From positions 5,833,244 to 5,897,243 of the forward strand of contig CM082597.2 in the NCBI GenBank assembly GCA_040954595.2: a DNA stretch of 64,000 nt, read 5' to 3'. The number at the start of each line of letters is the position of its first letter. Position 1 is the first letter of the stretch. The stretch comes from Balanoglossus misakiensis (lineage: Eukaryota > Animalia > Hemichordata). This document shows positions 7,480-33,160 of this stretch, piece by piece. The notes below the pieces were generated by a model that had not been told where the DNA came from, searched no databases, and saw only the letters and a program-made list of their open reading frames with translations. The position numbers were made by a program, and so were the translations under genes.

Positions 7480-8560
7480 TTACAAAACTTTTGAAAAGTT
7501 TGCATACTATACATAAAGGCAGACAGTCGATTTTTTGGAAAATGGATATTTGAGGAATAAACTATGCCGTATTTGGGTGGATTTTGCAGATACTTTCTCA
7601 CTATATGTGCCGTTTTGAATTCCTGGACATATTTATCTTCACCGACATCTCCCGCAGCGGAAGTTAGTCATCACATGAATATTGCAAATGTGAAATGTAG
7701 ATGACATGACAGGCGATAAAATCTTACAATTGGATTTTTAGAGTTGCAATTTTTTGAATAAGAAATGTTGCCATAAATAATTTAAAGCCACTCTTTCAGG
7801 ATCTACCTCAGAACCCTAACCGATGGGTTAACCTCTGGGAATCCGTATTGTAGCATTATTGTTGACGTGGACAATGCACTAAAGACAAGTTATTGAATAT
7901 ATATCACATGTACACTCAAAGGAAATGTATAAGTGCGGGACAATTTGCCGAATTGTCATTGATTGGGGTCAGATGCAAAATTTGTCAACCGTGGATTGCC
8001 TGAGAAGACGTAAATTGTTACAATGTTGTCGTGAAATCCCTTTGACGTTAACGATCATCGCCACATTCGTCGAAAGCATTTAAAAATGTTGCATTCCTCA
8101 CGGAGTGGGAGACGATCGATTTTGGGAATGTTGATATTGAGGGGGTGTGTATGTCGTATTTGGGTAAATTTTGCAGATACTTTTGTATACCAGATGTGCT
8201 GAATTCATACTCGCATATGTCTTCAGCAACACATCCCGCAGCAGAAGTAAGTCAATATCTGAATAATGTAAATGTTAAATGCAGATGACATGAGAGGCGG
8301 TAGAATATTACAAATTGTATTTTTAGAACTACAGAATTTGAGAATAAAAATGTGACCATAAATAAATTAAAGCCACTCTCTTAAGATCTAATCCAGGGGC
8401 CCTTACCGGAGGATTAACCTCTGGGAAACCGCATTGTAGCATTATCATTGGTGTGCTCAATGCATGAAAGGCAAGGCATTAAATATATATCACATGTACA
8501 CACAAGATAACTGTATATTTGCAGGACAATATGCCGAAATTCCATTAGTTGGGTGAAACA
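7480..8560. repeat. Duplicated upstream (putative promoter) module of the lectin-GAIN genes, including a decayed exon-1 copy
   Basis: 7480-7960 resembles 8110-8550, 22025-22450 and, in part, 21200-21390 (GCAGATA...CCCGCAGCGGAAGT...CCATAAATAA...TTAACCTCTGGGAATCCGTATTGTAGC). Segment ~7985-8070 (GCCTGAGAAG...GTCGTGAAATCCCTTTGACGTTAACGATCATCGCCACATTCGTC) matches exon 1 but lacks the ATGs and the donor site. Confidence 0.7.
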
Positions 8561-9193: not shown

Positions 9194-12100
9194 ATGGCTC
9201 GTCTGAGAAGGTGTAAAATGTTGCGAGATTGTCGTGAAATACCCTTAAAGTTAACGCTCATCGCTACATTCGTCATTCTGTCGGTGACATTAGTGCAGCA
9301 AGCAGGTAAGACATTTTAATTCCTCAAAACCAAGCCTAGGTAAGAAATATCAGCAAAGCGGCAGATCTACACCGTCTAGATGGAAAGAAAGGCTGTCAAG
9401 CAGCGAAATCGAGATAATTTAGCTGCGCAAGGGGTTTGTCAAGCAGCAAAACCTAGATAGTCTAGCTGCAATTCCCGGGGTTTTTCCCGAAATTCCGTTG
9501 GATTTTAAAATGGCGATCAGGAGTATAAACACTCGCTAACTGTCAGTTTTTCCTGATATTAGGTGTTTAAAAGCAAAATTTCGGAATAAAATGTAGCGCG
9601 TTCTGGGACTAGTGAATTTAACAATAGTTGTGCCAAACGATTTTGTTAAACTCTCAATACTCTTTTGAAGATAGAAAAAAATCGGAGTACGGACAAGTCT
9701 AGCTATGCATGGCTGCAGGACCCTTGTGTCTTAATGCCGGCGATACCGCCGAGGAGTTTTTTTTATCTTCTACAAAAGTATTGAGAGTTTCACAAAATCG
9801 TTTGGCACAAGTATTTTCAAACGCATTAGTCCCTGAACGCGCTACATGTTATTCGAAAATGTTGCGTTTCATTCATTCATTCATTCATGTAAATATCGGG
9901 ATAAACTTACAGTTACAGGGCTGTGTACCTTACGGTGATGCCTTGGGTGCTCACCGGCCGTAAGACACAAGGGCCCTGCAGCCATGCATAGCTAGAGACG
10001 TGCCCGTGCTCCGAGTTTTTTTATCTTCTACAAAAGTATTGAGAGTTTCACAAAATCGTTTGGCACTACTATATGTAAATTCACTAGTCCCTGAACGCGC
10101 TACATGTTATTCCAACATGTTGCTTTTCATTCATTCATTCATTCATTCATTCATTCAAGTAAATATCGGGATAAACTTACAGTTACAGGGATGTGTATCC
10201 TACGGTGATGCCTTGGGGGGCTCGCCGGCCGTAAGACACAAGGGCCCTGAAGCCTTGCATAGCTAGACATGTCCGTACTCCGAGTTTTTTTATCTTCTAC
10301 AAAAGTATTGAGAGTTTCACAAAATCGTTTGGCACTACTATATGCAAATTCACTAGTCCCTGAACGCGCTACATGTTATTCCAACATGTTGCTTTTCATT
10401 CATTCATTCATTCATTCATTCATTCATTCATTCATTCATTCATTCATTCATTCATTCATTCATTCATTCAAGTAAATATCGGGATAAACTTATAGTTACA
10501 GGGATGTGTATCCTACGGTGATGCCTTGGGGGGCTCGCCGGCCGTAAGACACAAGGGCCCTGAAGCCTTGCATAGCTAGACGTGTCCGTACTCCGAGTTT
10601 TTTTATCTTCTACAAAAGTATTGAGAGTTTCACAAAATCGTTTGGCACTACTATATGTAAATTCACTAGTCCCTGAATGCGCTACATGTTATTCCAACAT
10701 GTTGCTTTTCATTCATTCATTCATTCATTCATTCATTCATTCATTCATTCATTCATTCATTCATTCATTCATTCATTCATTCATTCATTCATTCATTCAT
10801 TCATTCAAGTAAATATCGGGATAAACTTACAGTTACAGGGATGTGTACCTTACGGTGATACCTTGGGTGCTCACCGGCCGTAAGACACAAGGGCCCTGCA
10901 GCCATGCATAGCTAGAGACGTGTCCGTGCTCCGAGTTTTTTTTTCTATCTTCTTCAGTAGTATTGAGAGTTCAACAAAATCGTTTGGCACAACTATTTTC
11001 AAACGCATTAGTCCCTGAACGCGCTACATGTTATTCCAAAATGTTGCGTTTCATTCATTCATTCATTCATGTAAATATCGGGATAAACTTACAGTTACAG
11101 GGCTGTGTACCTTACGGTGATGCCTTGGGTGCTCACCGGCCGTAAGACACAAGGGCCCTGCAGCCATGCATAGCTAGAGACGTGTCCGTGCTCCGAGTTT
11201 TTTTATCTTCTACAAAAGTATTGAGAGTTTCACAAAATCGTTTGGCACTACTATATGCAAATTCACTAGTCCCTGAACGCGCTACATGTTATTCCAACAT
11301 GTTGCTTTTCATTCATTCATTCATTCATTCATTCATTCATTCATTCATTCATTCATTCATTCAAGTAAATATCGGGATAAACTTACAGTTACAGGGATGT
11401 GTATCCTACGGTGATGCCTTGGGGGGCTCGCCGGCCGTAAGACACAAGGGCCCTGAAGCCTTGCATAGCTAGACGTGTCCGTACTCCGAGTTTTTTTATC
11501 TTCTACAAAAGTATTGAGAGTTTCACAAAATCGTTTGGCACTACTATATGTAAATTCACTAGTCCCTGAATGCGCTACATGTTATTCCAACATGTTGCTT
11601 TTCATTCATTCATTCATTCATTCATTCATTCATTCATTCATTCATTCATTCATTCATTCATTCATTCATTCATTCATTCATTCATTCAAGTAAATATCGG
11701 GATAAACTTACAGTTACAGGGATGTGTACCTTACGGTGATACCTTGGGTGCTCACCTGCCGTAAGACACAAGGGCCCTGCAGCCATGCATAGCTAGAGAC
11801 GTGTCCGTGCTCCGAGTTTTTTTTTTCTATCTTCTTCAGTAGTATTGAGAGTTCAACAAAATCGTTTGGCACAACTATTTTCAAACGCATTAGTCCCTGA
11901 ACGCGCTACATGTTATTCCAAAATGTTGCGTTTCATTCATTCATTCATTCATGTAAATATCGGGATAAACTTACAGTTACAGGGCTGTGTACCTTACGGT
12001 GATGCCTTGGGTGCTCACCGGCCGTAAGACACAAGGGCCCTGCAGCCATGCATAGCTAGAGACGTGTCCGTGCTCCGAGTTTTTTTATCTTCTACAAAAG

Positions 12101-15100
12101 TATTGAGAGTTTCACAAAATCGTTTGGCACTACTATATGCAAATTCACTAGTCCCTGAACGCGCTACATGTTATTCCAACATGTTGCTTTTCATTCATTC
12201 ATTCATTCATTCATTCATTCATTCATTCATTCATTCATTCATTCATTCATTCATTCAAGTAAATATCGGGATAAACTTATAGTTACAGGGATGTGTATCC
12301 TACGGTGATGCCTTGGGGGGCTCGCCGGCCGTAAGACACAAGGGCCCTGAAGCCTTGCATAGCTAGACATGTCCGTACTCCGAGTTTTTTTATCTTCTAC
12401 AAAAGTATTGAGAGTTTCACAAAATCGTTTGGCACTACTATATGTAAATTCACTAGTCCCTGAATGCGCTACATGTTATTCCAACATGTTGCTTTTCATT
12501 CATTCATTCATTCATTCATTCATTCATTCATTCATTCATTCATTCAAGTAAATATCGGGATAAACTTACAGTTACAGGGATGTGTACCTTACGGTGATAC
12601 CTTGGGTGCTCACCGGCCGTAAGACACAAGGGCCCTGCAGCCATGCATAGCTAGAGACGTGTCCGTGCTCCGAGTTTTTTTTTCTATCTTCTTCAGTAGT
12701 ATTGAGAGTTCAACAAAATCGTTTGGCACAACTATTTTCAAACGCATTAGTCCCTGAACGCGCTACATGTTATTCCAAAATGTTGCGTTTCATTCATTCA
12801 TTCATTCATGTAAATATCGGGATAAAGTTACAGTTACAGGGCTGTGTACCTTACGGTGATGCCTTGGGTGCTCACCGGCCGTAAGACACAAGGGCCCTGC
12901 AGCCATGCATAGCTAGAGACGTGTCCGTGCTCCGAGTTTTTTTATCTTCTACAAAAGTATTGAGAGTTTCACAAAATCGTTTGGCACTACTATATGCAAA
13001 TTCACTAGTCCCTGAACGCGCTACATGTTATTCCAACATGTTGCTTTTCATTCATTCATTCATTCATTCATTCATTCATTCAAGTAAATATCGGGATAAA
13101 CTTACAGTTACAGGGATGTGTACCTTACGGTGATGCCTTGGGGGGCTCGCCGGCCGTAAGACACAAGGGCCCTGAAGCCATGCATAGCTAGACGTGTCCG
13201 TACTCCGAGTTTTTTTTATCTTCTACAAAAGTATTGAGAGTTTCACAAAATCGTTTGGCACAACTATTTTTAAATTCACTAGTCCCAGAACGCGCTTCAT
13301 GTTATTCCATAATGTTGCTTTTAAACACATAAATATCAGGAAAAACTTGCAGTTAGCGAGTGTTTGTACTCCTGATCGCCATTTTGAAATCCAACGCAGT
13401 TTCGGGAAAAATCCAGGGAATTGCAGCTATACTATCTAGGTTTTGCTGCTTGACAGCCTTTCTTTCCATCTAGACGGTGTAGATTCGCCGCTTTGCTGAT
13501 ATTTCTTACCTAGGCCTGAAAACAGAAGCACATGAATCTTATTATTTTGTGATTGTTTAAACTGACTGTCATAAGAATAACGATTTTATTTCCAGGTTGC
13601 GTCACCTACCACGTTTTCGGGTATATGGATCAGCCTTCTGCCTACAGTTTTTGTGAGCGATTAGGTCTCCGTCTTGTTAAAGATGACAGCGAAGAAAAAC
13701 ACGCAGCTATAGTAAACAGTTTAAAAGGACGAGGCTTTATTCCATACACTGAATTATGGATAGATGCTCGACTGACTGACAACGGAAGCGTAGTCACAAG
13801 AGACGGGGAAATTTTGACTCACAAGCCCAGGGGTACAGATTTTTCAGAAAATGATGGAGAGTGTCTCGCACTGGCGTGAGTTCAGCGTTTTCAAACTATA
13901 TTATAATATGCAAAACTGTGTGATTTTTTTTGCTCATAATAATACAGCTCAACTTGAAGCAATCATTCTGTGTCATGCGCAGAAGCTGACAATGGAAAAT
14001 CAGTAGGGACAGAGTTTATTGACAATTTAAAGACATGCAGATGTTACAATAGACAATATATTCGGATCACAATTATATTTCTTTTGTAATTGCGTACACA
14101 TGTCTCCTTTTGTGGAAAAATTCAATTCGGTAACTGTAAGATATGTCCAGATTTATCTCATCGTTTACCAAACTTTCACAACAAAATGTGTTACAACAAT
14201 CTAACTCTGATTTATTTAAGTTTCTGCCAATTTTAGATCATGTAGACTTTATTCTCCATTGTCTTTGGATCTTAGTCAACCGTTAAGGAGAAATTGCAGA
14301 AAACGTTTTGTAGTATACATTATAATATACCTCATGCTAATACTGTGTTGTGATTCGCCATAATCCGTCACGTGATAGGAAAATATAATCGACGATGGAT
14401 CCCTAGGGAAAATTTCAATCGGAAACTGTGAGATATGTCCATTTTACCGTTGAACAAAAACCTGTCTCTGCAAAAATGTGGTACAACAATCTAACAAATT
14501 TATCTCATGTTTCTGACAATTTAAGATCACGTGGATTGAATTCTTCATTGTTGTTTGATGGTTGATCGGCGTTAATGAGTGGAGATAACATATTATTACT
14601 TGACGTTTCAATTACCAGGAATGACGCATGGATAAATATTAATTGTAACACGAACGGCACCGTCGGCCCTCTATTGGAGGTTCTGTGTGAAAATGCGAGT
14701 AAGTTCTAGTTCAATTAATTCTTTTACACTTACTTCATACTTTTCCTTATGACTGATCGACCTATCTTTGTTGGTTCAAGTGGAAAGACACGTTTTTAAT
14801 TTATGTATTTTTATAACATTTGCCTCTTTATGTATATGAAACAATCACCTTCTTAAATTGATATAACATGTATTTGGTTTATTTACGAAATATATGTAGA
14901 TACTTATCGGTGTTTTTTCGCCATTTTTATTATTATACAGACGACAAATAAACGCTTAATTAGAGACACTAAACCATTATAGACATTTATTTTAAAGCCT
15001 CTATAGCTGCCAAATTTCACATTATTTCCGCAGTAAAATACTTCAAATATATTCCCTATCCTCTAAAATCCTCACCATTATGCCGTATTACCTGCAATTG

Positions 15101-18100
15101 CATCAGTTTGTCATCTCTTGGCGTGGCATACCACGATAGCTGCGTACTGTTTGTATGGAGGCTGATTAAATCGGTGCGGCACCTGTTTAATACATGTTCA
15201 AAATTGCAATCGGGCATCGATAAGGTGTTCATGTATACCTATCAGCTAGTAGGCTTATTTAGATGGATCAATTTAAGTTGGAAAATAAAATCATGAAAAT
15301 AATGCAAAAAGTGGCAGCTTTAGAGGATTTTAAGGGAAATAAATTACGTTTATCTCATTTGCAGCTTCTTTCGACTTAACTACGACTCTCACGAGGAGCG
15401 TGGTTGATGCACACAAGGTATGTGAAAAGTTTGGGTTACGTCTTCTAACCGACACAACCCCATGGGATTACGACCAGTACTGTTTGGGCGGTCCATTGGT
15501 GCAGGATTTTGTGGGTTATATATGGATTGATGCTTTCATCGCGGCAGATGGCAAAGTCAAGACAGCCAGTGGTTTTATATTGGAATACACGCCTTTTATT
15601 GGCAACGTGCGATTAGAAGTCGGATTGTGCGTTTACGTAGAGTGAGTCATTCTTTGTTCACGCTGTTTTCCGCGTTGCTAGAACCGTATGCATGTTTTTC
15701 CATTTCTTTAATCATTTTAACTAGCTGTCATAGGCGTTGGAACTTGCGAGATTACTTTGGAGAAAAGATGGCAGTTAAATGTGTGTATGCTTGTTGCAAC
15801 ATGTGTTTCTTATCTTAAAGGTTACAATCAGTAATTTGCACTATTTCTGGTATTTTATCAACTTAATCTGCCATATCGTCTGAATTGCAAAGCATACTTT
15901 GAGCATGGTACTCTACAGCTAACGCTGATTGCATTACAATTCCAACATGTGCCCTACAACATGAAAGACAGTGGATGTAAGAAAGTAATCGGAACCCTGC
16001 GCATGTCAAGATTGAGTTTTTATATTGAACGATTTTGGAAAACTAAGCCAGGGTATGCTTCATGAATAATTATTTTATTCAAATAACGCAAAATGTGGCG
16101 TTATGACCAACCCGCATTCTGTAGAGATCACTATTGACACTGTACAGCAATCATTGAACAAGTCTTAAACAATAATTTGTTATACAGTTGCGACGACGAA
16201 ATAATTAGTAGAAAAACCATATGGTCCCTTGAAAACTGCACTGAGAATAGACTGGTTGTTTGCGAGGATAAAAGTAAGTAGTTGTGACATCAGCCTTTCC
16301 TGCATAGTTGACCACCTGTGTAGTTCTGTGGTGTGTATACATACAACATATGCCATAATACATGGAAAGTCGACAAATGCATACGCATGGTAACTACATT
16401 TATATGCGTTGGAAGGGAGTCACATTGGAAATGCCTGTATGTGTAATGGACCATCTCTTGTTGCTTTCGGTAAATGGATAATTGAAACAAAAGTTGTATT
16501 GTTCCGCCACAAGACGGTTAAATGATGGTCCTGCAGTGTATAGGAAGAGAATCGAAGGAACAATGACTTAAACTATTGCAGCGCCTTAACTTCAGTGTGG
16601 ACATGAACATTCCGCTAGGTTATATAGGTTGAAAACTAAGTGAAACTCTAGATAATAGTCAAGTTGTTTGAAGACCATATTCGTCTGCTTGCCTTTGCAT
16701 GTGTCAACTTAGTGCCGTGTACATACAAGGGAGTCGAATAATAATATCCAAATGTTTCATGGACATTATTGGCATGATTATTGGCATGTTTGATCTCGCG
16801 ATGACTTTTGTATGAGATTATTTTTACCGATTTCATTAGTATACACAGATAAAGGAATGCATGACATTGAAATTATTTATGACTGACTTGACATGAAAGG
16901 AGGTTGTTGACAACGGAGTAAAGATGTCCCCTGAAAATGTTATATATTCATGTACTATTTTTAAGTCACGAATGCCTTCTCAATTTTATAAATACAACAC
17001 ATAATATTTTGGCACCTCTCACATCATCTGTCTTTTACATTTGCAACATTCAGATGACTTACTTCTGCTGCGGGAGAGCTTGGTCAGGATAAGTGACGAT
17101 GAATTCAGAACAGCAGATGTGGTAAGAAAGGTTTCAATCATTTGAGACTGATGTAATGCACTGTAGTGTAAAAAGCCACAAGTTAGCGACGTCCACTGAA
17201 ACGTACTTTAAATGTCTTTATGGGATATGACTATTTTGTGACAACCACATACTAAATAGCTGTATTTTCTTTTGCCAGGGTATTAGTGTAATTGACAAGG
17301 TGGACACTTTAACCTCTGACCTCTTAAATAAAAGTGTCATATTTGAAGGAAGAATTCTATTTGCAAAAGGTATTGTGATCTTTTTTATTTAAGACCGCAA
17401 TGATCCGTGACGTCATTATGTATTTCAACACCGTCCGCATTAAATATCATTCAATGATGTAAATACGATAATGGTATCATACGCAGAAATGTAGAACCCT
17501 ACAATCCCTAAGCGTATCGAATATGTGTCAACTATACTTCGTTTGTTTCAATGAATCATGCAGATAATTGGTGTCCATCAATTATGTTATTCTCAGAAAA
17601 ACTAAGCATTGGGCAATTCCAAAAGCTGATGGATACGAGAAAAGAGACACACTTATTATCAACCGGCGTATGATGCAATAGCCGATGCAGACCGACAGAG
17701 TGAGAAAGTTTTAAATGTCAATAATTATAAATTTCAGAAACACTGAATGTTATGCAAAATGTGGTAGACAGAATGCAGTCCCTAATTGACGCCAATCCGA
17801 GCGACAGGCTGAAACCCGGGCAGGCAAATCACCTGACAAAGATAACAACGAAAGTATTCCGCCAGTTATCAATGTTTATACTGAACGAGACTAATTATGG
17901 ACATGGACCAATCATCGTGAAAACGTCTTCTCTTGTGCTGCATCTGGAAAAGAACTTTACGCAGGACTTGTGCGACACCAGTATAATGATTGGAGATGGA
18001 AGTGGATTCAATATTCCACCAGCAGACAGTATGTTTCCACAATTGTCGCAGGACACAGTCTTGAACGTGATGGTTCGTATACAACGTCTATAATCAGAAA

Positions 18101-20502
18101 AAAAAATATTTCATTTTCAATCATACACTGCTCTATACTTCTATATTGATATTTGTATACTATTGGTCGTTAGGACTTTTCCGCCAGTAAACTATAATAT
18201 GACGTCCCAGTGATCTTGCAATCATTAATGGAATGAATTGTAGGCTGATATTTGTGTTGAGTCAATGCATCCGTTGCAATTGATTTTTAAAAAATTAGCC
18301 CATACTATATTTTAATGATGATCTTTGGTTTTATGTACAGTATATGTTGTTGTCATCTTGTGTCCTTATGCTCAAGAATAATTAAAGTAATTTTTTGCCT
18401 TTAGATTTTCCGTTTGGGTGTAAATCCCCACAGATTGGCAAATGACACATATGGCTTTACTACCGATATACTGACCTTGGAATTCAGAGATGAAGATGGT
18501 AATGAGATTAAAGGTTGGTTTTCATTAAGGCCAAAAGTGGCATCCTAACATTCTTAGGGAACTCACAACAATACTTGAAATGTGCAGGGGAAAGAAGTTG
18601 CCTCTCTGGAACGCCTTGTCTTAAGGGGTTATTGATTAGGCATGGAGCATGTCCTGTGTCACCATTGTCGTAACGATGCACAATTTAAACTGGAAAAGGC
18701 GAATTCCTTCTTTAAAACAACTTTACCTAGAAACTAAGCAACATATTTGTATACAAATACTCGCTCATAATTTCATCTTGGAGGGCGTAACTAGATTAAT
18801 GACCAATCTGTGAATATACTTTTGAAATCAGTTTGAGTTATAACATAACATTTTTATTTTCAGTGAAAAATGCATCAGAGGATCTCGGTGTATGGCTTGG
18901 TAATTATCAGACACCTATAAATGAAAGCATCGTCAGGGGATTATACGTGGAAAGTGAAGGAGTCACTAACTATGCATTGACAGTAACGGTAATCTTCACA
19001 TACTATATGAAGTTCACTGATCATTACATGTTTTCTGATCTAGTCTTTAACATAACCATTTGATCAACAGGGCAAAACTCAAACATGAGTATTAATGGTA
19101 TTGGTGTTATTTCAAACATAGTGTTATCTGTTACCTCACAAATTTCATTATGTGAAGTTTATCATGCGTCGATTTCTCATTATTTTCGTTGCAGGCGCTA
19201 TCGGCCTACTCTGCATTTCAAATAATCCTGGAAGCATCAGCGCCTGTCTTCGAGACTACTACAGCATACATGTCACTGGAAAGACTTGACGCCGTCGGTG
19301 GCTACAGTGATTTCCATTATGTAACTGAGTTGGTATTTGCAGGGTGTACAGCATCCATATTTCTACCAGAAGCAAAGATCACCAGGACGGGCTTGTATTA
19401 CATATTCTTTGACCTTACCAGTGGTAAGATTGTGGTATTTACATAATTAATACGACTATTGCACAATGATCGTTGATTGCAACACATAGTTGTGTTTTCT
19501 TTTCTTTTCTTTTTTTTGCTGTTTATGCTTCTTTTTAATTTAAAAAACGAACATGCATATGTAGAAAGTTATACTACGATCTTGCGGTTTTAATATAGCT
19601 TTCCCAATTTTCTAATTTTACTATCGAGCTTAGATGGGTCCATCTAAATATGCTTACTTATGTTTATCTAAATATGCTTACTGATTGTTATACATTTACT
19701 TCTTGTCGATGCCCAATTGTGACTGTATGTTGCAATTTGATCAAGTGATATATTAAACGGGAGCTCAACCTGTTTAATCGGCCTCCATACAAAGGTGTAC
19801 ACAAAACACGTGGTATGCGTTCTGTATTTCTTTTGCCTTTAGCAGTATAATACAAAAAATTATGAATTTCATTTTCTGGGTGCACACAACCTTACAGACA
19901 CTCCAGTTGGTTTTATATGGAATATGTTGATGTAACCTCAGTTCTGTATATCTTTTTTTCACTACAGCCCGTGGGGTTGACATCACTGTTCTCACTACTC
20001 AACACAGATGTAGTTACTTTGACGAGACTAACTGGCAAAATGATGGTTGTAAGGTATACAAATTAATTTCTTCTAAATTTTGCACAAGTTGAAATGCTCC
20101 ATGTACTTGCGATTGATGAAATTTAAAGACAAGTGGCAATCAGTGTGATTTCAGTGGTTACTATGGATAAATTTGCAACAAAAACTTAAAATGCAGAACA
20201 AGGTACTGCATCTTACAATTAATACTGACACATGGAAAATACCGTAAACGTACAAAATGTACTGATTCACGTGGGGGCGCTTTTCCTTGTTTAAATTAAC
20301 GCTGGGATTTGAACCAGGTGTTTGATCTTGTTTCACTTGCAAAGAAACGCCCAATGCTTTGTCATCACGTTTTTTTCTGCTTGATATCTTGCAGGTGTCA
20401 CCAAAATCCGACTTCAATTCTACCCTGTGTCTGTGTAATCACCTGACTGTTTTCAGTGCAATGGTGGGAGTTGTTGAATCTGATGGACGATTCCACGTTT
20501 AG
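9194..20502 (+). CDS. Lectin-GAIN/GPS paralog 2: signal peptide + 2 C-type lectin-like domains + GAIN/GPS, ~653-661 aa, no TM
   Basis: 13 exons: 9194-9305, 13596-13875, 14619-14698, 15365-15641, 16188-16273, 17054-17121, 17279-17369, 17738-18072, 18405-18513, 18864-18988, 19195-19423, 19968-20053, 20395-20502. Total 1986 nt, phases consistent. Hydrophobic leader LTLIATFVILSVTLVQQA. CTLD motifs AYSFCERLGLRLV...LWIDA...C...W..INC...VLCE and AHKVCEKFGLRLL...IWIDA...C...W..ENC...VVCE. GPS CLCNHL-T, then stop. The start may be the second Met at 9218. Confidence 0.88.
9331..13518. mobile_element. Non-autonomous DNA transposon with ~400-bp imperfect TIRs, 5-bp TSD and internal satellite array, in intron 1 of paralog 2
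   Basis: Starts CAAGCCTAGGTAAGAAATATCAGCAAAGCGGC and ends GCCGCTTTGCTGATATTTCTTACCTAGGCCTG. AAAAC is duplicated at 9326-9330 and 13519-13523. The paralog-3 intron shows the empty site (CTCAAAACAGGAG at ~22680). Segment 9331-~9745 is the imperfect reverse complement of ~13145-13518. Confidence 0.9.
9752..13205 (+). repeat. Tandem array of 12 units of ~260-340 bp, each with a variable (TTCA)n tract
   Basis: Units start near 9752, 10013, 10281, 10594, 10932, 11195, 11487, 11813, 12076, 12381, 12671 and 12933. Length differences come from (TTCA)n. This produces the spurious HSFI-repeat ORFs. Confidence 0.95.
14992..15333. mobile_element. TTAA-flanked MITE (Kolobok-like); related pieces at ~34220-34570, ~53070-53288, ~55466-55660, ~6240-6335, ~19700-19790
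   Basis: TTAAAGCCTCTATAGCTGCCA...TGGCAGCTTTAGAGGATTTTAA termini. The core GAGGCTGATTAAATCGGTG...CAATCGGGCATCGATAAGGTG recurs elsewhere. Confidence 0.65.
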
Positions 20503-21511
20503 CACAGGGGCGACCTTTGGGTCTACATACATGTATGTGACAAGATAAGCTTTTCGGGCGAGTTCTAAACAGATGATGTAGCATTCAAAATGTGTTCGTG
20601 TTTTTTAGACTTTATGAAGCAAGAAATGTTCATATTGCAGTTTTGGAAAGAGTTTTTAGGTGATAATGAATCAAGTAAAAAGCATAGATGTATATTTAGC
20701 TAGAGGTGTCCGAAAGAGAAGCGTTTGGATGAAAATTTGATGTTTAAAAAAGAATTGCATTTTGTTAGGTTGCGTACGTCTATGATTGATTGTGTTTGTC
20801 TGTAGTCAGGCGGAGTAATACACTGTTTCATAATTGTACTGCGACACTTTTCGCACTCTTACATTGTTCTTGCCCAGTGCGCTTACGCTGGACAGAAACA
20901 CAAGGACCGATGGGTCTGAAATGAGCATTGACGGAGGTTTATAAAAATCATATAGTTCGATGTAATTTACACATGTCTTTGCAATGTGCCAGGATAGCAT
21001 ATATACATGTATACATTTATCAATGTTTCTGTTTTGTAATAACCAGTACTGTCACTTGCCATTGTAATAACCCGTTATTGTACTTGTCATTAATTGGCGG
21101 AGTTATAGTATTCTGTAATTGTGACATATCCCACAGCAGATGTAAATCATCAGTTGAATAATGAAAATGTGCTGATAACGTGAGAAGCGGTGGAACGTGA
21201 CAAATTGTCTGTCTAGAATTACACAGTTTGAGAATAAAAAGGGACCATAAATAAATTAAAAGCAACTCTCTCAATATCTAACCTCTGGGAATCTGTATTG
21301 TAGCATCATTGCCGTGTACAATGCATGGAAAGCAGGACATTGTATATCATATATAAGCCTACACTCAAGAGAGATGCATATTTACAAGACATATGCAGAA
21401 TTTCTATAAATTGAGTCAAACCAGCTACACATATTGTTATGCAAAACGGCCCACCCCAACATACATTCCACCATCTGCGTACCTGCATATGAACGCGCCT
21501 CCCCCCTTGTA

Positions 21512-21660
21512 CGTATGTATGTATGTATGTATGTATGTATGTATGTATGTATGTATGTATGTATGTATGTATGTATGTATGTATGTATGTATGTATGTAT
21601 GTATGTATGTATGTATGTATGTATGTATGTATGTATGATTAAATGAATGAATGAATGAAT
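21512..21660. repeat. (GTAT)n microsatellite followed by (GAAT)n
   Basis: Directly visible; source of the MYVC/HTYI ORFs. Confidence 0.97.
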
Positions 21661-22543
21661 GTAAAATTTGCATAGTAATTTGTAATAGCTGCGAAGTGAA
21701 TTTTGGTGAGGATCTAAATTCATTATTCTATACTTACAATGTAGGTAATGTGTTTACCTGACATACACAGGAATGAAAACAGAAAATGTATCCCTGATCT
21801 ATTGAACAGAAAACAAAAATAGTTTGTTTTTAAATCTCTCCATTGTCCATTCCTTGTCTAGATGAAAATGCTATTTTGGCCGACCTAAGTATAAAATCTT
21901 TAGTTTATATCAGACAAAGCAATTTGTTGGGTGGGTGGGTGGGTGGGTTGGGTGAGTGAGTGAGTGAGTGAGTGAGTGAATATTTCTTGAGTGAGTATGT
22001 CGTGATTAGATAGGTTATACAAAGCCTTTGAAAAATTGTGCATACTCTACATAGTGCCCGCCGATCGATTTTTTTGGAATGCGGATATAAGGGGGGGAAA
22101 AAACTATGCATTATGGGTATATTTTGCAGATATGTTTGTATCATATGTGCCGTAGACATATTTATCTTCACCGACATCGCCCGCAGCGGAAGTTAGTCAT
22201 CATCTGAATAATGCAAATGTGAAATGAAGATGACGTTAGAGGCGATAAAATCTTACAATTAGACTTCTAGAATTGCAATTTTTTGAATAAGAAATGTTGC
22301 CATAAATAAATTAAAGCCACTCTTTCAGGATTTACCTCAGAACCCTAACCGATGGGTTAACCTCTGGGAATCCGTATTGTAGCCTTATTATTGACGTGGA
22401 CAAAGCACTAAAGACAAGTTATTAAATATAGATTACATGTACACTCTTGGGTCATACGCATATTTTGTCACTTTGTTCATATATTAGATAATCGCAGATT
22501 AGTCGCAAAGCATTCAACTGTGGCTTGCCTGAGAAGCTGTAAA

Positions 22544-25500
22544 ATGTTAAAAGATTGTGGTAAAATACCTTCGACGTTGACTCTCGTCGCTACATTCGTG
22601 ATGTTGTCGGTGACATTGCTGCAGCAAGCAGGTAAGACACTAATTATGGATTTTTGCACGTTCAGAAAGTCTAAAGCTGCTCAAAACAGGAGCTCATAAG
22701 TCTTATCATCGTGTTATTGGAAAATGAATGATTGTAATAAGAATAACGATTTGATCTCCAGATTGCAACTTCTTGCGCGGGTGGTCGGATCACGCTACAG
22801 CTTACACGGTTTGTGAGCGATTGGGTCTTCGCCTTGTTAAAGTTGACAGTGAAAGAAAAAACGCAGCTATAGTAAACACTTTAGAGAAACGAGGCATCGC
22901 TGATTTATGGTACTGGATAGACGGACTGTTAATTGACGACGGAAGCGTAGTCACAAGAGAAGGGGAAATGTTGACCATCCAGTCGCAGGTTGAATTGAAA
23001 TGGGGAAATTGCGTCGCAATGAAGTGAGTTGAGAGTTTTGACAATATATTTAAATATGAAAAATAATGTCTTTGTGGTCATTTTAATATAGCTTAATCCA
23101 GTGCAGAGGCATGCAATCTGTAAAAATATATCAGTGGGGACAGAATTAATTTACATTTTAATGATATCCAGATGTTACAATCGGCAATGTTTCCAGAAAA
23201 ACATTATTGGCAATTGCACGCCCATATACCTCGAGTTTTATATGGGAAATTTCTATCTGCAACTTTGATATATGTCCAGTTTTCTATCAACGTTACTTTA
23301 GAACACCAAGCTTTGTCTGCAAAATGTGGTAAAACATTTAACCATATTTGTCTATTTTTTGCAAATTTTAGATCTAGTTGATCTAATTACCAATTATCTC
23401 CGGGTCTTAATACAATTAAAGGGAAAATGTAGAAAACGTTTCAATATAGTTTGTCAGATGTATGGGTTGACTTGCGTTAAGGGGTGAAACTTTAATATAC
23501 TTTCAAAACTTTTTAATTCACAGAACAGAGTGGGGCTATTTTAAGTGTTCGCGCGTCCATGGCGTTTTATGTGAAAATGCAAGTAAGTTACGGTTTAATA
23601 AAGATCTTTTAACCAAGTTCATGGTTGTTCCTAGCGAGTGATCTAATCTATCATGTTTTTTGGTATTCTATAACATTTTACTCACGTGATTCAGTATCTC
23701 ACGAGGTTATACTGGTATTATATGTGGTCGATTATCTGCTTAGGCCTATTTGCATATTTAATGACATTTTCTAATTTATGCTATATTTCCGAAATTACTG
23801 CACCGAATTTGATGAAATTTGCTACAGATATTGAATGTGGCCGACATGTGGTTGTGTTATGAGAAATTTAGCAATGAAATGTTAATTAATGGCTAATTTT
23901 CAGATTTAATGACTTTAATCAATCGGCCTCAAACGATCCAGAGATCATACAGCAAATCCGATGAATCTCTAGATATTGTTTTCACGTCTATTAAGCTGCA
24001 TTTAGTAATAACTTACAGCTCATTTGAATTTTATGAACCTGTTTTGTTTAGTGCTATGTTTCTGAAATAAATGTACCGAATTTGATGAAACATGCTAGAA
24101 ATGTTGATACGACAGGAATCTGACTATATTGTAAGACATTTCGCAGTGTCATGTTAATTAATGAATAATTTGCATATTTAACTAATTTGTGCAGTTAGCC
24201 CTTCGAATCCCGAGTTCCTGCACCAAATTTAATTGAAATTGTCAGCCAAACTGTTTCTATATCAATTATACTGTATTTAAAAATACTGTGCCTATTTCTA
24301 ATCAATGCAAGGCAAATTTGCATATTTTATGACTTGTTCTGATTAGTGCTCTGTTTCTGAAAATAATGCACTGAATGTGATGAAATGCTTAAATTATTAA
24401 TCTTCAAGTTTCCTTTAGCTATGGATAAGAGTCAATTCACGTCATTTTTTTTCTTTAAGTGGTCAAAATGTATTGGTTTATTTAGATAAATAATTTGAAA
24501 AAAAAATATGATAATTATCCCAAAAGTTGCAGCCTATATGCAATTGCACCAAAACAAAATATACTTTTTTCCGTATTCGAATTTGACGGGAAAGAAATGA
24601 CGTTTTTCCCCCAATATGCAGCATCTTTAGACTTTATTCCCACACGGGCGAGCATGATGTCTTCATACCAGCTATGTGAGAAGAGTGGGCTCCGTCTTCT
24701 GACTGACACCACTGAATGGAACATCGACCAGTATTGTGCGTCCATTTGTAAGGGATGGCACCCAAGATTTTGGATTGACGCCACCATCACGGCAGATGGC
24801 ACTGTGAAGACAAGCAGCGGTTTGGTATTGGAACACTCCCATTATGCCCCCGACCAGAATCTTGACGTCGGGTCGTGTATTTACGCAAGGTGGGTCGCTG
24901 TCTGTTCAAGCTACTTTCCTTAGTGCCACACAGAAGACATAGTTTTACATTTCTTTCATGACGTTACGTTAATTGTCATAGAGTTTCAACATAGGAGAAA
25001 TGATGGCAGTTGAATGATTTGAATAAGTGTGTATTGTTACGTTTTCTTATCCCAAAGGTAACTCTCTGCTGCTAAAAATCACTACTTTTGCACTATTTCT
25101 GGTATTTTGTCAAGTTTGAGTTCTATGTTTTGCCTTTTGGTAATTAACTTTACCTGCTATATCGTCTGAATCGCAAACCACAATGTGAGCATGATACTTT
25201 ACAGCTAACGCTGGCTGCAATATCATTCCAACATGCGTTTTACAGCATAGTAGACAGTGGATGTAGGAAATTTATCGGAACCATGCCCATACCAAATTTG
25301 ATTTTAAATATTCATAACGATTTTAGAACACTAAGCCAGGGTGTGGCAGCACGGTTAATGATTTTATTCATTAATGCAAACTTTGCAGGTTGGTCATGAG
25401 GCCATCCTATAGAGATCATTCTACACACGTATGATTATCAATATAGACACTGTGCAGTGACCATTGTAGACATTAACTTCAATAAGCGTTGTGAACAGTG

Positions 25501-28500
25501 AATCTTTTATTCAGGTGTTTCTCAGACAAATGTGAATGGTTAACTAGAGACTGTAACAGACCACTGGATTTAGTTTGCGAGGATAACGGTAAGTATTTTG
25601 AGACATCAGCGATTAATCTCGTTCTTAAATCTTCCCTTTCCTACACATTTGACCACCTGTGTAGTTCTGTGGTGTGTATACATTCAACATACGCCATGAT
25701 ACATGCAAAGTCGACAAATACATACACTTTAATTGTAAATATATATTTATCCGCGTGGAAGGGAGTCACATTGGAAATATGTATAATGGACGATTACCTG
25801 TTGTTTTCGGTAAATGGATAATTTGGCATTGACTGGCAAAGACGTCTCCTTAGAGAATGTGTAATATATTCCTGTTAGTGCCTTCGAAATTTTAGAAATT
25901 CAATTGATAATACTTTGCCACCCCTCACGTCATCTGAATTTCACATTTGCAACATTCAGATGATGACTTACTTCTGATGCGTGAGAGTTTGGTCAAGATA
26001 AGTGACGATGAATTCAGAACAGCAGATGTGGTAAGAAAGGTTCCAATCATTTGAGACTGATGTAATGCACTGTGTTGTAGAAAGCCAGCGAAATCCACAT
26101 AAGAGATAGAACATTTTTGAAAATGCTCCATACTAAACAATTCCACATAATGCTATTAACCACATACTATGACTATGTAATTGTATATTCTTTTGCCAGG
26201 GCATAAGCGTAATTGACAAGGTGGACACTTTAACCTCTGACCTTTCAAATAAAAGTGTCATATTTAAAGGAAGAATTCTTTTTGCTAAAGGTATTGTTAT
26301 ATTTTGTTGTTTTCACCAAAATGACTCTTTGACATCGGCATCCATCACAACACCGTCCGCATTCAATATCATCCAATGATGTATATGAGATAATTGTATC
26401 AGATGCAGAAAATTAGGGCTTTGCGATTATTAAGCGTATCGAAAATGCGTCAACTGCAGTTCGTTTGTTTCGACAAAACATGCAAATTATTGGTGATTGT
26501 ATTGCGTATTGTATTGGACATGTCAGACTATTGAATGATACACTGAATTAAAAGTAGAACGACAGGACTCCATTATCAGTCCATCATTTTTTTTTCCAAA
26601 TGGTTACAAGAAATGAAAGTCACTTAATATTTTTCGGGCATTGATGTAAAGCCGAGAAAGACAGTCAAACAGAGTGAGATAGTTTTAAATGCCAATGTTT
26701 GCATATTTCAGAAACACTGAATGTCATGCAAAAAGTGATGGACAGAATGCAATCCCTAATCGACACCAATCCGAGCCAGAGACTGAATCCCAGGCAGGCA
26801 AATCACCTGACAAAGATAACAACAAAAGTATTCCACCAGTTATCAATGTTTATACTGAACGAGACTGATTGTGGACATGAACCAATCATCCTGAAAACGT
26901 CTTCTCTTGTGCTGCATCTGGAAAAAAACTTTGCGCAGGAATTGTGCAACGTCACCATAATGATTGGAGATGGAAGTGGATTCAATATTCCACCAGCAGA
27001 TATTATGTTTCAACAATTGTCGTGGGACACAGTCTTGAGCAGAATGGTCCGTATACAAATTCGATGATAATAAGAAACAATATATAATGTTTGTTTATAT
27101 TCCTCTATTGTTGAACATGGATAAACATATAACTATCTGCCGCCAGTTAACTTTAATGTGACGTTCTGGTAAGATGTCATTTTTTATGGGATGAACTATA
27201 GGCTGTCATCTGTGTTGTGTCAATGCACCCATTGTCATTATATTCTACAAAATAAGATCATTTCTATGTGGCCTGGTGCTCGAGGAATAATTAAAGTAAG
27301 TTTTTTTTTTAGATTTCCCGTTTTGGTGGGAACCCCCACAGATTGGCAAATAGGACACATGGCTTCACTACCGATATACTGACCTTGGAATTCAGAGATG
27401 AAGATGGTAATGAGATTAAAGGTTGGTTTTCATTAAGGCCATCAGTGGTATCCTAACATTCGCATTGAACTCTCAATATTTTACCAGTTAACGTCGCACC
27501 ATTTAAACCGGAAATGGCGAATTCCTTTAACTAGAAACCCCGGCGACATACTTGTATAAACATACCATCTTGGAGGGCAGAAGTCGATTAATGACAAATT
27601 TGTGAATTTAGTTTTGGCATTATTTTAAAATTATCATGAAACATGTACCTTTTCAGTGAAAAATGCTTCCAAGGATCTTGGCGTATGGCTTGGTAATTAT
27701 CAGACACCTATAAATGAAAGCGTCGTCAGGGGATTATACGTGGAAAGTGAAGGAGTCACTCACTATGCATTGACAGTAACGGTAATGTTTACATACTCTA
27801 TGAAGTTTACTGATCATTGCATGTTTTCTGAACTCGTATTTAACATAACCATTTGATCATATATCATTATGGAATGATAAATAATTTGCATCATTGTTAC
27901 ATAGGTATTCCTGCCGCCCGAAATTGTTGTAGATCTTTGTAAACCTTTCAACGGGGCAAAACTCAAGATCTATACATGTCTCTCGCAGCAAGGGATATGC
28001 AACTTTCGGTTACAAACCTTCGGCTTTGATATCAATTTCCTCGTCATCAATTACAGGGGACATGGTCATAAATTTCGATTTTTCTATAGGTGTTTGATCT
28101 ATAATTTAAGACACTCTGAAAAGGGTATACACGTATAAGACATTGGTGCCATTTCAAACATAGTGTTATCATTTACCTCACAAATTCCATTATGTTAACT
28201 TCAAATGTTAATCTAAAATTCTCATCTTTTTACATTGTAGGCGCTATCGGCCTACTCTGCATTTCAAATCATCCTGGAAGCATCAGCGCCTGTCTTCGAG
28301 ACTACTACAGCATACATGTCACTGGAAAGACTTGACGCCGTCGGTGTCTACAATGGTTCCCATTATATAACTGAGTTGGTATTTGCAGGGTGTACAGCAT
28401 CCATATTTCTACCAGAAGCAAACATCACCAGGACGGGCTTGTATTACATAGCTTTTGACCTTACCAGTGGTAAATTGTTTTTGTTTTTTTTTGCTGTTTA

Positions 28501-29317
28501 TGGTACTGTCAAATTCAAAAATCAACATGTATAATAATATGTAATGCTACGATCTTGATATTTAATTAAAGCTCAACTCGTTGACATAAAAATCACTAAT
28601 TTACTATTTCTATATTGGATTACGCACATATTGGCGGTCATTTTAAATTTAAAATATTAGAAAATTGGGCCTTATGTCGAAATATTCCATCGTGACCCCT
28701 GTTTCACAACTTTAAAAGCCACTCCAGTTAATTTTAAATTAAATCGTTAAAATAAACCTTTTAAGTTTTCTTTTCTTTTTCACTACAGCCCGTGGGGTTG
28801 ACATCAAGGTTTTCACTACTCAACACAGATGTAGCTACTTTGATGAGATTAACTGGCAAAATGATGGTTGTAAGGTATAAACGCATTTCTTCAAATTTTG
28901 CAATAATTAATATGCTCCTTGTACTTCCAAGCGATGAAACTAAAGACATGTGACAATTAGTGCGATTTCAGGGGAAACTGTGGATAAATATGCAACAAAA
29001 CTAAAAATACAGAAGGTAATGCATGTTACGATTAATGCTGACACGTGGAAAATACTGCAAACGTAAAAAATGCACTGATGTAAGTGGGGACTCTTTTCCA
29101 TTATATATTACATCCCTGAGACGTAAACCAAGTGTTTGATCTTGTTTCACTTGCAAAAGAAACGCCCACTGCTGTGTCAATACGCATTTTTCTGCTCGAT
29201 TATTTGCAGGTGTCACCAAAATCCGACTTCAATTCTACTCTGTGTCTGTGTAATCACCTGACTGTTTTCAGTGCAATGGTGGGAGTTGTTGAATCTGATG
29301 GACGATTCCACATTTAG
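22544..29317 (+). CDS. Lectin-GAIN/GPS paralog 3: signal peptide + 2 CTLD + GAIN/GPS, ~634 aa, no TM
   Basis: 13 exons: 22544-22631, 22762-23023, 23524-23582, 24622-24889, 25515-25588, 25960-26030, 26200-26290, 26712-27046, 27313-27421, 27657-27781, 28241-28469, 28789-28874, 29210-29317. Total 1905 nt, same phases as paralog 2. Ends CLCNHLTVFSAMVGVVESDGRFHI*. Confidence 0.88.
23740..24400. repeat. Degenerate internally repetitive insertion in intron 3 of paralog 3
   Basis: TGCACCGAATTTGATGAAA-like and TTTGCATATTT motifs recur at ~23800, 24070, 24220 and 24370. The segment is absent from the equivalent intron of paralog 2. Confidence 0.5.
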
Positions 29318-30619: not shown

Positions 30620-32586
30620 TTATTCCTTCCTTGGTTTCCTCCCCCTGAAGTTGATGTTCCTGCATTTAAATGTTTTGTGTCGTCTGCTTCGCTTCCGGCC
30701 TCGCTTCTGCTTCCCGCCTCGACTATTCTGTCGTCTGCCAACTTTCTCTGTTTTGGAGTAAAAAAGATGACATGAGTTTCTTGTTTTGAAATTTAATATA
30801 AGTACATGTACATTATATAAAAATCAAAGTATACAGTTTGCATCGAGAATATAGTGAATGTGTTTCTCTTTGCGATTAACAATCAGTGGTCTTAATATCT
30901 CTGCTTAATAAATGTCAGATGCACGAATTATTAATACTAATTCCCTACCGTTAGCATTTTTATGGAACACAATATACTGAACATGTGTCAAATATCATTT
31001 GAAAATTAATATTGATACATTCCTTGTTGTATTTACATGATTTGTTAATAAAAAGAAAAATAAGACTTGATGAATATTGGTGAAATTATGAGAGGGTTGC
31101 ATGTCACTAGAACAATTTGGGGCCGAATGGATTGATAGAGTAACATTCTCACCGTGAGCTCGACCATTTTCTTCTATAGACTTTTGAATAATCAACTCCT
31201 TTGACTCCGTAATTGTCATTTCTCCCTGCCTCGCCGTGCATAATAGGGTCAAAGGTCGTGACCCTATTGCTTCCGGCAGAAACGTGAATTCACTGACACT
31301 TGTTATCACTGGTCCATCTTCCTCAACGCGCGATCTGCGCGTCCTGTGTGTGGTTATGTTTTCTATATGACGTTGGTGGCTTGTGGACCACTGTAAGTCC
31401 ACGTAATCTGTGTTAGTTGTTTGGCAGACTATAGTTTCGGCGGTGTTGCCATCAATGGTGATTGACTTGTCGTCGGCAGCCTCAATTCCTTTGGTCTTTT
31501 GATACATACTAACCCCAATATGTCTGTCTGTAATTGAGAAGAGCAGATGATGGCGAGTTTGGTCAGATTAAACTCTTGCGGTTGTCACTTAATTTTGGGA
31601 CAAAGTCTCTCTCTCGCTGCCCCTTTTCCCTTGATTATGTTTGATGCAAGGCACCGTTTATATTAGTGTACACGTGTATGTAGTGAATGAACGTTCGATC
31701 AAACGCAACTTCCATCCCGTTTGTAAGATTATAGAGTAAAAATTCGCCCAAAATGAATAAATGGTAGAGAACGATTTTTCATTTTGCCGAGATTTTAACT
31801 CTCATATGCTACAAACGGAGGGAAGTTGTGTGTGGTCGGACGTTGATTCACTATACATCCACATGAAGAATAACAAAAAAAATTATTATATGATAGAAAC
31901 TTAATAAGTTTGTTGTTTGTCAACTCTTCTGTCTTTCTCTTACTGATACGATTCTAACCGGAACACTGAGGCTTCTCTGCTTGTGCACAGTGTAAACAAT
32001 GGCACAGTAATTATATGCATGATAAAATGCGCCCTCTTTTGGTGAACCCTTCCTTCCGCCCAGTAAGGCAAGGTAGGAGGTCAGCTGGAGGTCAGGTGGT
32101 AGGGAGAGTACATGTACACCAATCACTCACACTCTCTCACTCACTGACTCACTGACTCACTCACTCACAATACCCCCACCCCCAATCCTCAGGTTAATAG
32201 ACGGATATACTTACTTGTTACCTGTAGCTCCACTGTATGTTGCAGTGTTATATATCCGCTGTCATCCTTGGGCTCTTTAAGCCGAAACACGACCAAACAA
32301 CGATAGCTGCCCTGATCTGCCAAACTGACATTTTGTATAACTAATTGGCCTTTAGGGGTGGCGCCGTATCTCTTGTGAATGATACCCCGTACGCTGAAGT
32401 CTTCAACGTGGACCAGGGTCGGATTCAGCGGGAGACCAGGCGTGTCTCTGCTCCAATCTATGGTGGTCCTGGTGTATGGCTGGCTGGGGTTGTCGTAGAC
32501 ACAGGGTAGGATAGTGTAGGCATCGCCGTCCTTTGCCGTCGTGCGGGTTTTGGTGGCAGGAGCTTGTGTGAGGAAACCCAGTGAAC
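30620..32586 (-). CDS. Ig-superfamily protein: V-set + C2-like domain + Arg/Lys-rich tail, no TM (leader exon not identified)
   Basis: Phase-1 exons 32586-32215, 31527-31153 and 30747-30620. V-set motifs ILPCVY...IDWSR...LVIQNVSLADQGSYRCLV...TVELQV. Second domain TIVCQT...LQWS...SEFTFLP...LLCTA. Last exon EKVGRRQNSRGGKQKRGRKRSRRHKTFKCRNINFRGRKPRKE*. Confidence 0.8.
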
Positions 32587-32610
32587 CTGTAAGAGTGGTC
32601 GCACATTGTC

Positions 32611-32843
32611 TTAAAGGGAAGGGGTCGTCGCACCGCGAGGGTGTCCCCCTTGATGAGAATATGCCCTCCCATACCAGCGCAAACCCCACTGCAGTCGCCA
32701 CGACCTACTAGGATCTTCAGTTGCTGCCATGCCCAGTCTACGCTACAGTTGGCTGCTTCGTTCATTCTAAGAATGGTCTAATTTGTTTTGGATAAATTGT
32801 AATGTTTATAAACAAACGCGGCGTGACGACCCCTTCACTTTAA
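32611..32843. mobile_element. TTAA-flanked MITE; second copy at 42236-42479
   Basis: TTAAAGGGAAGGGGTCGTCG...GACGACCCCTTCACTTTAA termini; the copy at 42236-42479 is highly similar. Confidence 0.85.
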
Positions 32844-32992
32844 TGATTACAAAAAAATCAACATCAGTGACTCAGTATCCAGCGGCGTATACAACTTTAC
32901 ACGAATCGCCAGATCAATGGTTGTGACGCTATATGTAGCACCTGAATGTATAAACGGGATAGATTTTAAAGGAACCCGATATTGCAATCGCA

Positions 32993-33160
32993 ATGACACC
33001 CTTTTCATAAGTCTAGCGCCCCCATGCAGCCATCATGAATTTGAACTCAAAGCGAGGCTAGTTGGGAAATCCCCTTGATGTGATTGGTCAACGTTCCCCC
33101 ATTGGCCTCGCTTTGAGTTAAAATTCATGAGGGCGCTAGACTTATGAAAAGGGTGTATGA
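32993..33160. mobile_element. Small palindromic MITE
   Basis: ACACCCTTTTCATAAGTCTAGCGCCC.CATG ... CATGAGGGCGCTAGACTTATGAAAAGGGTGT, with inner inverted CAAAGCGAGGC/GCCTCGCTTTG. Confidence 0.7.

Follow-up and report, generated by a model that had tools for sequence, protein, structure and literature searches.

A 64,000-nucleotide stretch of the hemichordate Balanoglossus misakiensis (assembly GCA_040954595.2, contig CM082597.2, positions 5,833,244 to 5,897,243 of the forward strand; hereafter the window) carries on its plus strand three tandem copies of one gene, P1, P2 and P3, the models of which we rebuilt from the sequence. P2 and P3 each have 13 coding exons with open frames and exclusively GT-AG introns, and are predicted to encode two C-type lectin-like domains (CTLDs) followed by a GAIN domain. 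We propose, with a probability of about 0.58, that these are secreted CTLD-CTLD-GAIN proteins recognising non-self, in which the ligand face is diversified and the GAIN part is kept alike by conversion among the copies. They probably belong to a family of secreted, membrane-less recognition proteins of the polycystin/REJ type that is under diversifying selection and has a role in immunity. The original prediction, made from the letters of the window, had described variable CTLDs on a constant stalk; this feature is real, and its interpretation is partly right, for reasons that the prediction did not have.

According to this proposal the protein would be secreted without a membrane anchor, and the two CTLDs, from which the Ca2+/sugar motifs are absent, may bind independently of Ca2+ through their beta3-beta4-beta5 face. 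Selection would keep altering this face in each copy, as seen for exon 5, and the observed uniformity of the GAIN part would be due to exchange among the copies. The GAIN domain, where the consensus is found, is expected to cleave itself at HL|T and to retain its 18-residue tail as the bound last strand, and might serve all copies as a glycosylated stalk or as a handle for effectors. The targets would be surfaces of microbes or other non-self, in a set that changes.

Diversification of the CTLD exons

P1 and P2 are approximately 96-97% identical, introns included, with the exception of exon 5. Their introns showed 101 differences in 3229 aligned bases (3.1%), and 10 of 266 synonymous sites differed in exons 6-13. 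In exon 5 we found 22 substitutions in 77 nucleotides (nt) plus a 9-nt indel, and the introns around it differed by 5.3% and 2.5%. Over 25 codons with 21 changes, synonymous differences amounted to 0.5 of 14.1 sites and non-synonymous differences to 20.5 of 60.9 sites, a non-synonymous excess over the introns with a binomial P of 1.5e-15. The changes were distributed over codon positions 1, 2 and 3 as 8, 10 and 3, and a mutation hotspot was ruled out on the basis that 18 of the 21 fell at positions 1 and 2. Exon 5 clearly exemplifies an exon that evolves at about ten times the rate of its introns.

A similar pattern with different changes was found in a public DNA run (X1; one sample from one study), with 47% of words shared with the window. 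A 138-nt contig of this run, which might represent an allele or else a close paralog, spans exon 5 and has nine substitutions and a 3-nt deletion, all of them in the exon, and no change in 55 nt of flanking intron (P=0.01). Eight of the nine substitutions change an amino acid, and so does the one next to the deletion, provided that the gap is placed on a codon boundary. When P1/P2 and the contig were pooled, 0-2 of 30 changes were silent in comparison to an expected 18.8% (within-exon P=0.002-0.06). The summed contig depth of X1, which is no copy number and gives no family size, was 1196-1969 at 16119-16163, 57-146 over the exon 5 core at 16191-16253 and 1746-2926 downstream. At least 3 of 14 loose ends in X1 (3 of the 6 among those listed) begin or end at the borders of this core and, by eye, lead into further open exon 5 variants that keep C, W or Y-T, and C, and run into CED. 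Diversifying selection on the exon 5 segment of the predicted ligand face is therefore considered likely, as judged from these sequence comparisons.

The product contains two CTLDs, each encoded by one long exon followed by a short one (exons 2 and 3, exons 4 and 5). P2 exon 2, a partial domain, matched Pfam Lectin_C with E=0.0056, under the curated cut-off, and P2 exon 4 had no Pfam match of its own; P2 exon 2 did find P3 exon 4 in a tblastn search (E=3.6e-10). P2 exon 2 is 46% identical to a homolog from the acorn worm Ptychodera flava (XP_070568693.1, hereafter P0002), the CTLD1 of which passes the Lectin_C cut-off (E=8e-10), as do two stretches of a further homolog, P0027 (E=1e-13). A PDB sequence search with exon 2 gave weak matches only, and a word-index protein search with the CTLD exon alignment gave no match. 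Four framework cysteines and the W-I/L-D strand aligned in all eight CTLDs compared. As originally described, EPN, QPD and WND are absent from 4 of 4 window CTLDs, and WIGL is replaced by WIDA, WIDG, WIDA and WIDA; one P. flava CTLD retains WRD at the WND position. By these motifs the window proteins are not classical Ca2+-dependent C-type lectins, in agreement with the non-classical CTLDs proposed before.

The strands named here are those of the general CTLD fold. CTLD1 of P0002 aligned weakly with CRD4 of the mannose receptor (E=0.016), placing EPN on FPK and WND on WRD, and exons 3 and 5 would therefore contain the beta3-beta4 loop, the WND-equivalent strand and beta5. By this alignment the exon 3/5 segment corresponds to the canonical ligand face of the CTLD fold. 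The diversified binding surface of the original prediction is thus supported insofar as selection acts on a segment mapping to this face, for exon 5, from P1/P2 and the public contig. Clustering of the variable residues on one surface was not established, because such residues are also found on the N-terminal strand and in the alpha2-beta2 loop.

Uniform GAIN exons without a membrane part

The lengths reported earlier for exons 2-5 of P2 and P3 were precisely reproduced (280/262, 80/59, 277/268 and 86/74 nt), as was the equal length of exons 7-13 (91, 335, 109, 125, 229, 86 and 108 nt); exon 6 measures 68 nt in P2 and 71 nt in P3. At the amino acid level, P2 and P3 are identical at 54 of 106 and 50 of 113 positions in the two CTLDs (47% together) versus 88% in the GAIN part. 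To call the GAIN exons almost fixed, as had been done, was nevertheless an overstatement, as exon 8 is just 81% identical.

The motif CLCNHL|T is present in all three copies, and P2 exon 13 matched Pfam GPS with E=0.0009. The protein for which a structural model was used is not the window's own spliced product; it is a homolog (P0004) 41% identical to P2, with a predicted local distance difference test score (pLDDT) of 82. Its top five Foldseek hits were all GAIN domains, and it matched the GAIN domains of ADGRG6, latrophilin-3 and BAI3 at Z 15-18, with Z 17.9 and a root-mean-square deviation of 3.3 A over 219 residues for ADGRG6 (residues 579-827 aligned). PDB sequence matches were likewise adhesion-GPCR GAIN domains. 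On the basis of this model, the window genes are assigned to GAIN-domain proteins, with a helical plus beta-sandwich fold of about 320 residues. The GAIN part of the window copies carries 7-9 sequons.

Between P2 and P3, 13 of 42 four-fold sites differ in exons 2-5, 12 of 147 in exons 6-13 and 1 of 63 in exons 11-13. From one region to the other, silent divergence changes to the same degree as replacement divergence. Introns 6-12 differ at 198 of 1112 alignable bases (18%) versus 8% at the four-fold sites of exons 6-13 (P=0.002). In comparison to the closest P. flava homolog, identity was 44.5% in the GAIN part and 35.7% in the CTLD part. A tree of 20 GAIN sequences, comprising the three window copies and the 17 of 33 homologs with the most complete GAIN, placed the window copies in one clade (100/100) apart from the P. 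flava homologs. Judging by the low silent divergence and the 44.5% identity to P. flava, the GAIN stalk is uniform within the species and not deeply conserved. The constant stalk that had been predicted is therefore constant within the species, mainly by homogenisation, with silent sites less diverged than the neighbouring introns, and gene conversion is the likely cause.

All three copies stop approximately 18 residues after HL|T, and about 2 kb separate each stop from the next exon 1. One of 39 nt of the tail differs between P2 and P3 versus 27 of the next 100 nt after the stop. The 3' regions contain seven hydrophobic open stretches, mostly private to one copy or in simple repeats, and none both shared and intact; the sole shared hydrophobic pair downstream is broken by a stop in P3. 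A shared membrane module downstream, as in protocadherins, was looked for and not found, and the genes that follow include an Ig V-set exon on the minus strand. No transmembrane exon directly after the GPS, the 7TM feature of adhesion GPCRs, was seen at the locus. For REJ modules, PLAT and 1-11 transmembrane segments, the gene models hold CTLDs and GAIN only, and no Pfam match was obtained in 33 homologs. From the sequence, the proteins are likely secreted. The original prediction had overlooked this lack of a membrane part after the GAIN domain.

The 33 homologs were obtained with a HMMER search using an exon-8 profile, and all of them lack 7TM, PLAT and channel domains. Look-up of 30 gave 27 RefSeq models of P. 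flava and one protein from Glandiceps talaboti. Fourteen homologs reach the GPS and all of these end 3-26 residues after CxC; seven end within 3-5 residues, among them one precisely at CLCNHL, and P0004 ends after four. Their N-terminal heads include CTLD, HYR, SUEL, F5/8, SRCR and PAN domains. Four of 28 named matches are automatically labelled 'polycystin-1-like protein 2/3' or 'sperm receptor for egg jelly-like' in RefSeq, and weak Atlas leads pointed to GPS+PLAT (0.85) and REJ (0.75). A word-index search with exon 8 gave no match among longer proteins, and a search for longer fused forms, restricted to 1706-4870 amino acids, yielded six proteins, all with HYR and none with 7TM, PLAT or channel domains, which is uninformative. 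In the literature found, supplements such as gene-family tables being outside its scope, no membrane-less GAIN family of hemichordates was described; envelope-tethered microbial GAIN relatives are described in the available part of a 2026 preprint (10.64898/2026.05.12.724683). The family found here is an expanded animal family of membrane-less GAIN proteins. An animal family that keeps GAIN without a membrane part raises the question of what GAIN does alone, and members ending at the cleavage site are natural test cases for the stability and the partners of shed N-terminal fragments.

Alternative explanations and known systems

Several of our results weigh against diversified recognition of non-self. 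For P2 and P3, the ratio of non-synonymous to synonymous substitution (dN/dS, Nei-Gojobori) was 0.66 over the 216 codons of exons 2-5 and 0.52 over the 357 codons of exons 7-13, so that this pair gives no sign of positive selection. This is half of what the original prediction had named, in combination with scattered variable sites, as speaking against it. The selection signal comes from one exon with 14 synonymous sites, and a test inside exon 5 alone gave P=0.013-0.095 for P1/P2. Exons 2-4 are without a close comparison of the kind available for exon 5. Among the variant rows listed (40 of 717) in X1, seven of eight in exons 2-4 are non-synonymous, which adds little because seven of eight rows in the GAIN exons are likewise non-synonymous. 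The N-terminal strand and the alpha2-beta2 loop vary off the canonical face, and the AlphaFold model of P0002, although it has two helices where expected, is too poor in its CTLDs (pLDDT mostly <60) for surface mapping. The introns adjoining the GAIN exons show no identity gradient, which DNA conversion tracts might leave. Moreover, 19 of the 33 homolog models stop before the GPS and are uninformative on a membrane part, and annotation quality is uneven, with P0027 looking like a fusion of two genes. Finally, the present evidence does not separate immunity from gamete recognition.

Gamete recognition is the main rival. It assumes the same anatomy and selection, with CTLDs tracking egg-coat or sperm ligands in a broadcast spawner in the way of sea urchin REJ1-3, and we regard it as unlikely though worth serious attention. 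According to the available part of PMC1934368, SpREJ1-3 of the PKD1 family carry CTLDs before the GPS/GAIN and their lectin domains are under positive selection. One homolog of the window genes bears the egg jelly receptor name, and REJ/PLAT clusters are among the weak Atlas leads (0.75-0.85). However, REJ genes are about ten ancient paralogs forming orthologous pairs between species, as far as the accessible text of PMC13672419 goes, whereas the window copies are recent tandem copies homogenised within the species. The relatives bear many kinds of lectin head, and, unlike REJ1-3, the window genes have no REJ module, PKD repeats, PLAT or transmembrane segment. SpREJ10, the only REJ without a transmembrane segment, has no GPS, whereas the window genes lack the transmembrane segment and keep GAIN. 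Because of the many copies, the shuffled lectin heads and the species-specific homogenisation, innate recognition of non-self fits better than the REJ case. Putative immune cells expressing C-type lectins and a mucus-secreting epidermis are described for hemichordates in the consulted part of PMC13554239, as context and not as evidence for these genes.

In another reading, which we consider very improbable, the protein would be a soluble, swappable ectodomain. Its membrane-less GAIN domain would imitate a shed N-terminal fragment and dock where cleavage of a polycystin or an adhesion GPCR has exposed the last strand, or would release the tail as an agonist, giving one receptor many ligand specificities. 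A broader version is scarcely less doubtful, in which acorn worms would hold a germline repertoire of 'pre-shed' fragments, with variable lectin heads on a uniform GAIN, plugging onto a tethered-agonist strand; if true, a few signalling receptors could read out tens of swappable specificities. Seven homologs end 3-5 residues past CxC, one of them precisely at CLCNHL, where a cleaved fragment ends; the P0004 model, which aligns to ADGRG6 579-827, itself ends four residues after CxC, and a stalk uniform within the species would suit one shared partner. Fragment exchange exists as a model in PMC3776922, yet the part of that paper available also states that it is not needed in vivo, and the excerpt of PMC3321182 at hand predicts that loss of the last strand would unfold the domain. 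No partner receptor was identified, and the window's own genes retain the last strand.

It is also hardly probable that no adaptive diversification took place, with relaxed CTLD loops or swaps from older paralogs, and conversion alone making the 3' half look constant. The P2/P3 dN/dS values agree with this explanation; four-fold sites of the CTLDs differ at 0.31 versus 0.22 in introns 2 and 4, which is not significant (P=0.18), and P1, without exons 1-4 in the window, may be a fragment. However, relaxed constraint predicts about 3% divergence of P1 and P2 in exon 5, where 29% was observed, and an old imported tract would have brought silent changes, which were seen at no more than 1 of 14 sites (P=0.024 if the proportion of synonymous differences were 0.34). 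The public contig, in addition, repeats the pattern with different changes. Equally little probability is given to proteins that are membrane-bound after all, through an internal donor in exon 13 leading to distant transmembrane exons or through an uncleaved N-terminal signal anchor. In each of the three copies the FSAM codons are followed by GT, P1 has its stop displaced by several codons, and the n-region is long and basic; the GPS is, in the seen text of PMC3321182, always located just before the first transmembrane helix. Against this, the tail is conserved and exon-like up to the stop, there is neither room nor a shared candidate exon downstream, no membrane domain follows the GPS in any of the 33 homologs, and the homologs P0005 and P0015 are hydrophobic at residues 1-19, like ordinary signal peptides.

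Diversified recognition of non-self can also be compared with known systems. Adhesion GPCR and polycystin-1-like (PKD1L2/3) ectodomains share with the window genes adhesion or lectin modules on a GAIN domain and the HL|T consensus; however, the window frame ends approximately 18 residues past the cleavage site with no 7TM or 11TM, and in several members from P. flava the cleavage site is itself the end. Three P. flava proteins (XP_070568693.1, XP_070558929.1 and XP_070532992.1) have a GAIN of the same subfamily (41-45% identity), the same WID/WLD-type CTLDs and the same truncation at the GPS; unlike the window genes, the first of these (P0002) has four HYR repeats between its CTLDs and GAIN (CTLD-CTLD-HYRx4-GAIN), and the P. 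flava names are automatic only. Amphioxus VCBP and snail FREP proteins are secreted, multi-copy proteins with a variable part joined to a more uniform part, and conversion occurs among their tandem copies. To our knowledge, no family of the VCBP, FREP or SpTransformer type uses a CTLD plus a GAIN. Sea urchin SpTransformer would be a further germline-diversified family of this kind, with domains unlike those of the window genes.

The CLec proteins of diversity-generating retroelements (Mtd, TvpA, AvpA) resemble the CTLDs in that, according to the available part of PMC5006420, variation extends from beta3 to beta4/beta4' around a central aromatic residue that is fixed, with beta5 unchanged; window exon 5 likewise keeps W, C and its CED end. 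However, no reverse transcriptase or template repeat was seen, the variation in the window consisting of germline point changes and indels under likely selection, and the likeness is an analogy limited to the use of the fold. Similarly, the antigen-receptor-like organisation into variable and constant (V/C) regions that had been proposed did not hold beyond analogy, because every copy carries a full set of constant exons and shows no sign of rearrangement, and no shared downstream module was found. The system probably works like a germline-diversified secreted recognition family. By the features tested, the product is a CTLD-GAIN protein and not an adhesion GPCR, a member of the REJ/PKD1 family or a V/C system. 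It is a candidate diversified recognition system in hemichordates.

Layout of the locus and other features

The interval originally proposed, 13596..25588, lies within the locus but covers only part of the unit, as P2 exon 1 lies upstream of it, P3 ends beyond it and P1, the copy with the decisive signal, was left out. Exon 1 is 70% identical between P2 and P3.

Table. Features of the three tandem copies (positions in the window)
Feature	Position	Strand	Description
Paralog 1 (P1)	2631..~7065	+	exons 5-13, open; exon 5 = 2631-2707
Truncated additional exon 1 copy	7991..8071	+	between P1 and P2, inside duplicated upstream block
Paralog 2 (P2)	9194..20502	+	13 coding exons, 661 amino acids; open frame, GT-AG
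P2 product order			predicted signal peptide - CTLD1 - CTLD2 - GAIN/GPS - 18-residue tail - stop
P2 exon 1	9194..9305	+	n-region basic, then a hydrophobic stretch; by inspection a predicted signal peptide, or a signal anchor
P2 exon 2	13596..13875	+	CTLD1, putative first strand to beta3
P2 exon 3	14619..14698	+	CTLD1, putative beta3-beta4 loop, WND-equivalent strand, beta5; variable
P2 exon 4	15365..15641	+	CTLD2, putative first strand to beta3; homologous to exon 2
P2 exon 5	16188..16273	+	CTLD2, putative beta3-beta4 loop, WND-equivalent strand, beta5
Exon 5 hypervariable core	~16191-16253	+	likely positively selected
P2 exons 6-13	17054..20502	+	GAIN domain (by homology)
P2 exon 13	20395-20502	+	GPS motif CLCNHL|T, 18 more residues, then stop
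Paralog 3 (P3)	22520..29317	+	same 13 exons as P2
P3 exons 2-5	22762-23023, 23524-23582, 24622-24889, 25515-25588	+	

No exons 1-4 of P1 were found within the window, where 63-1468 is filled by a 238-bp tandem array. That P1 is a misassembled allele of P2 was ruled out, as their 3' flanks are just 65-81% alike where they match. Between P1 and P2, intron 6/exon 7 (17202-17370) and exon 12 (19968-20053) are locally more diverged (0.13, 0.07 and 0.07), and this patchwork suggests short tracts from other paralogs. In P3, 22520-22522 reads GTG where P2 has its first ATG, and an in-frame ATG eight codons on, common to both, is probably in use.

Intron 1 measures 4290 nt in P2 versus 130 nt in P3. 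In P2 it contains 260-310-bp repeats with TTCA microsatellites between them (9750-13320), flanked by an inverted pair (9331-9754 / 13136-13518), and this tract looks like a transposon-derived satellite. The duplicated upstream block at 7481-8070 resembles 22018-22599 and is, together with its truncated exon 1, a leftover of a further gene copy. Inverted copies, approximately 74-75% identical, of 16984-17130 (P2 exon 6 with the intron 5 end before it) were found on the minus strand at 7593-7726, 8195-8328 and 22162-22255, which suggests that the region upstream of exon 1 is derived partly from an inverted gene piece. Contigs of X1 and of a further run, X2, join 16777 to 18818 without exons 6-9, and represent a deleted family member in that sample.

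Outside the three genes, Ig-domain exons lie on the minus strand at 30998-42500, one of them a V-set (32192-32704, E=1e-8); frames at 30998-31567 and 37980-38531 also look Ig-like by eye, and a signal-like exon is duplicated (32611-32843 / 42236-42479). Possibly these exons form another tandem recognition family next door. Coiled-coil exons at 44500-47000 on the plus strand had no Pfam match and presumably resemble HSF2BP. A ~350-bp palindromic element is scattered at 37324, 45943, 49706, 56732 and 61959, and an inverted repeat with microsatellite ends (59333-59875 / 60033-60593) is 96% identical between its arms. An intronless frame of 562 amino acids at 62301-63986 on the minus strand encodes an AMP-binding, acyl-CoA synthetase-like protein.

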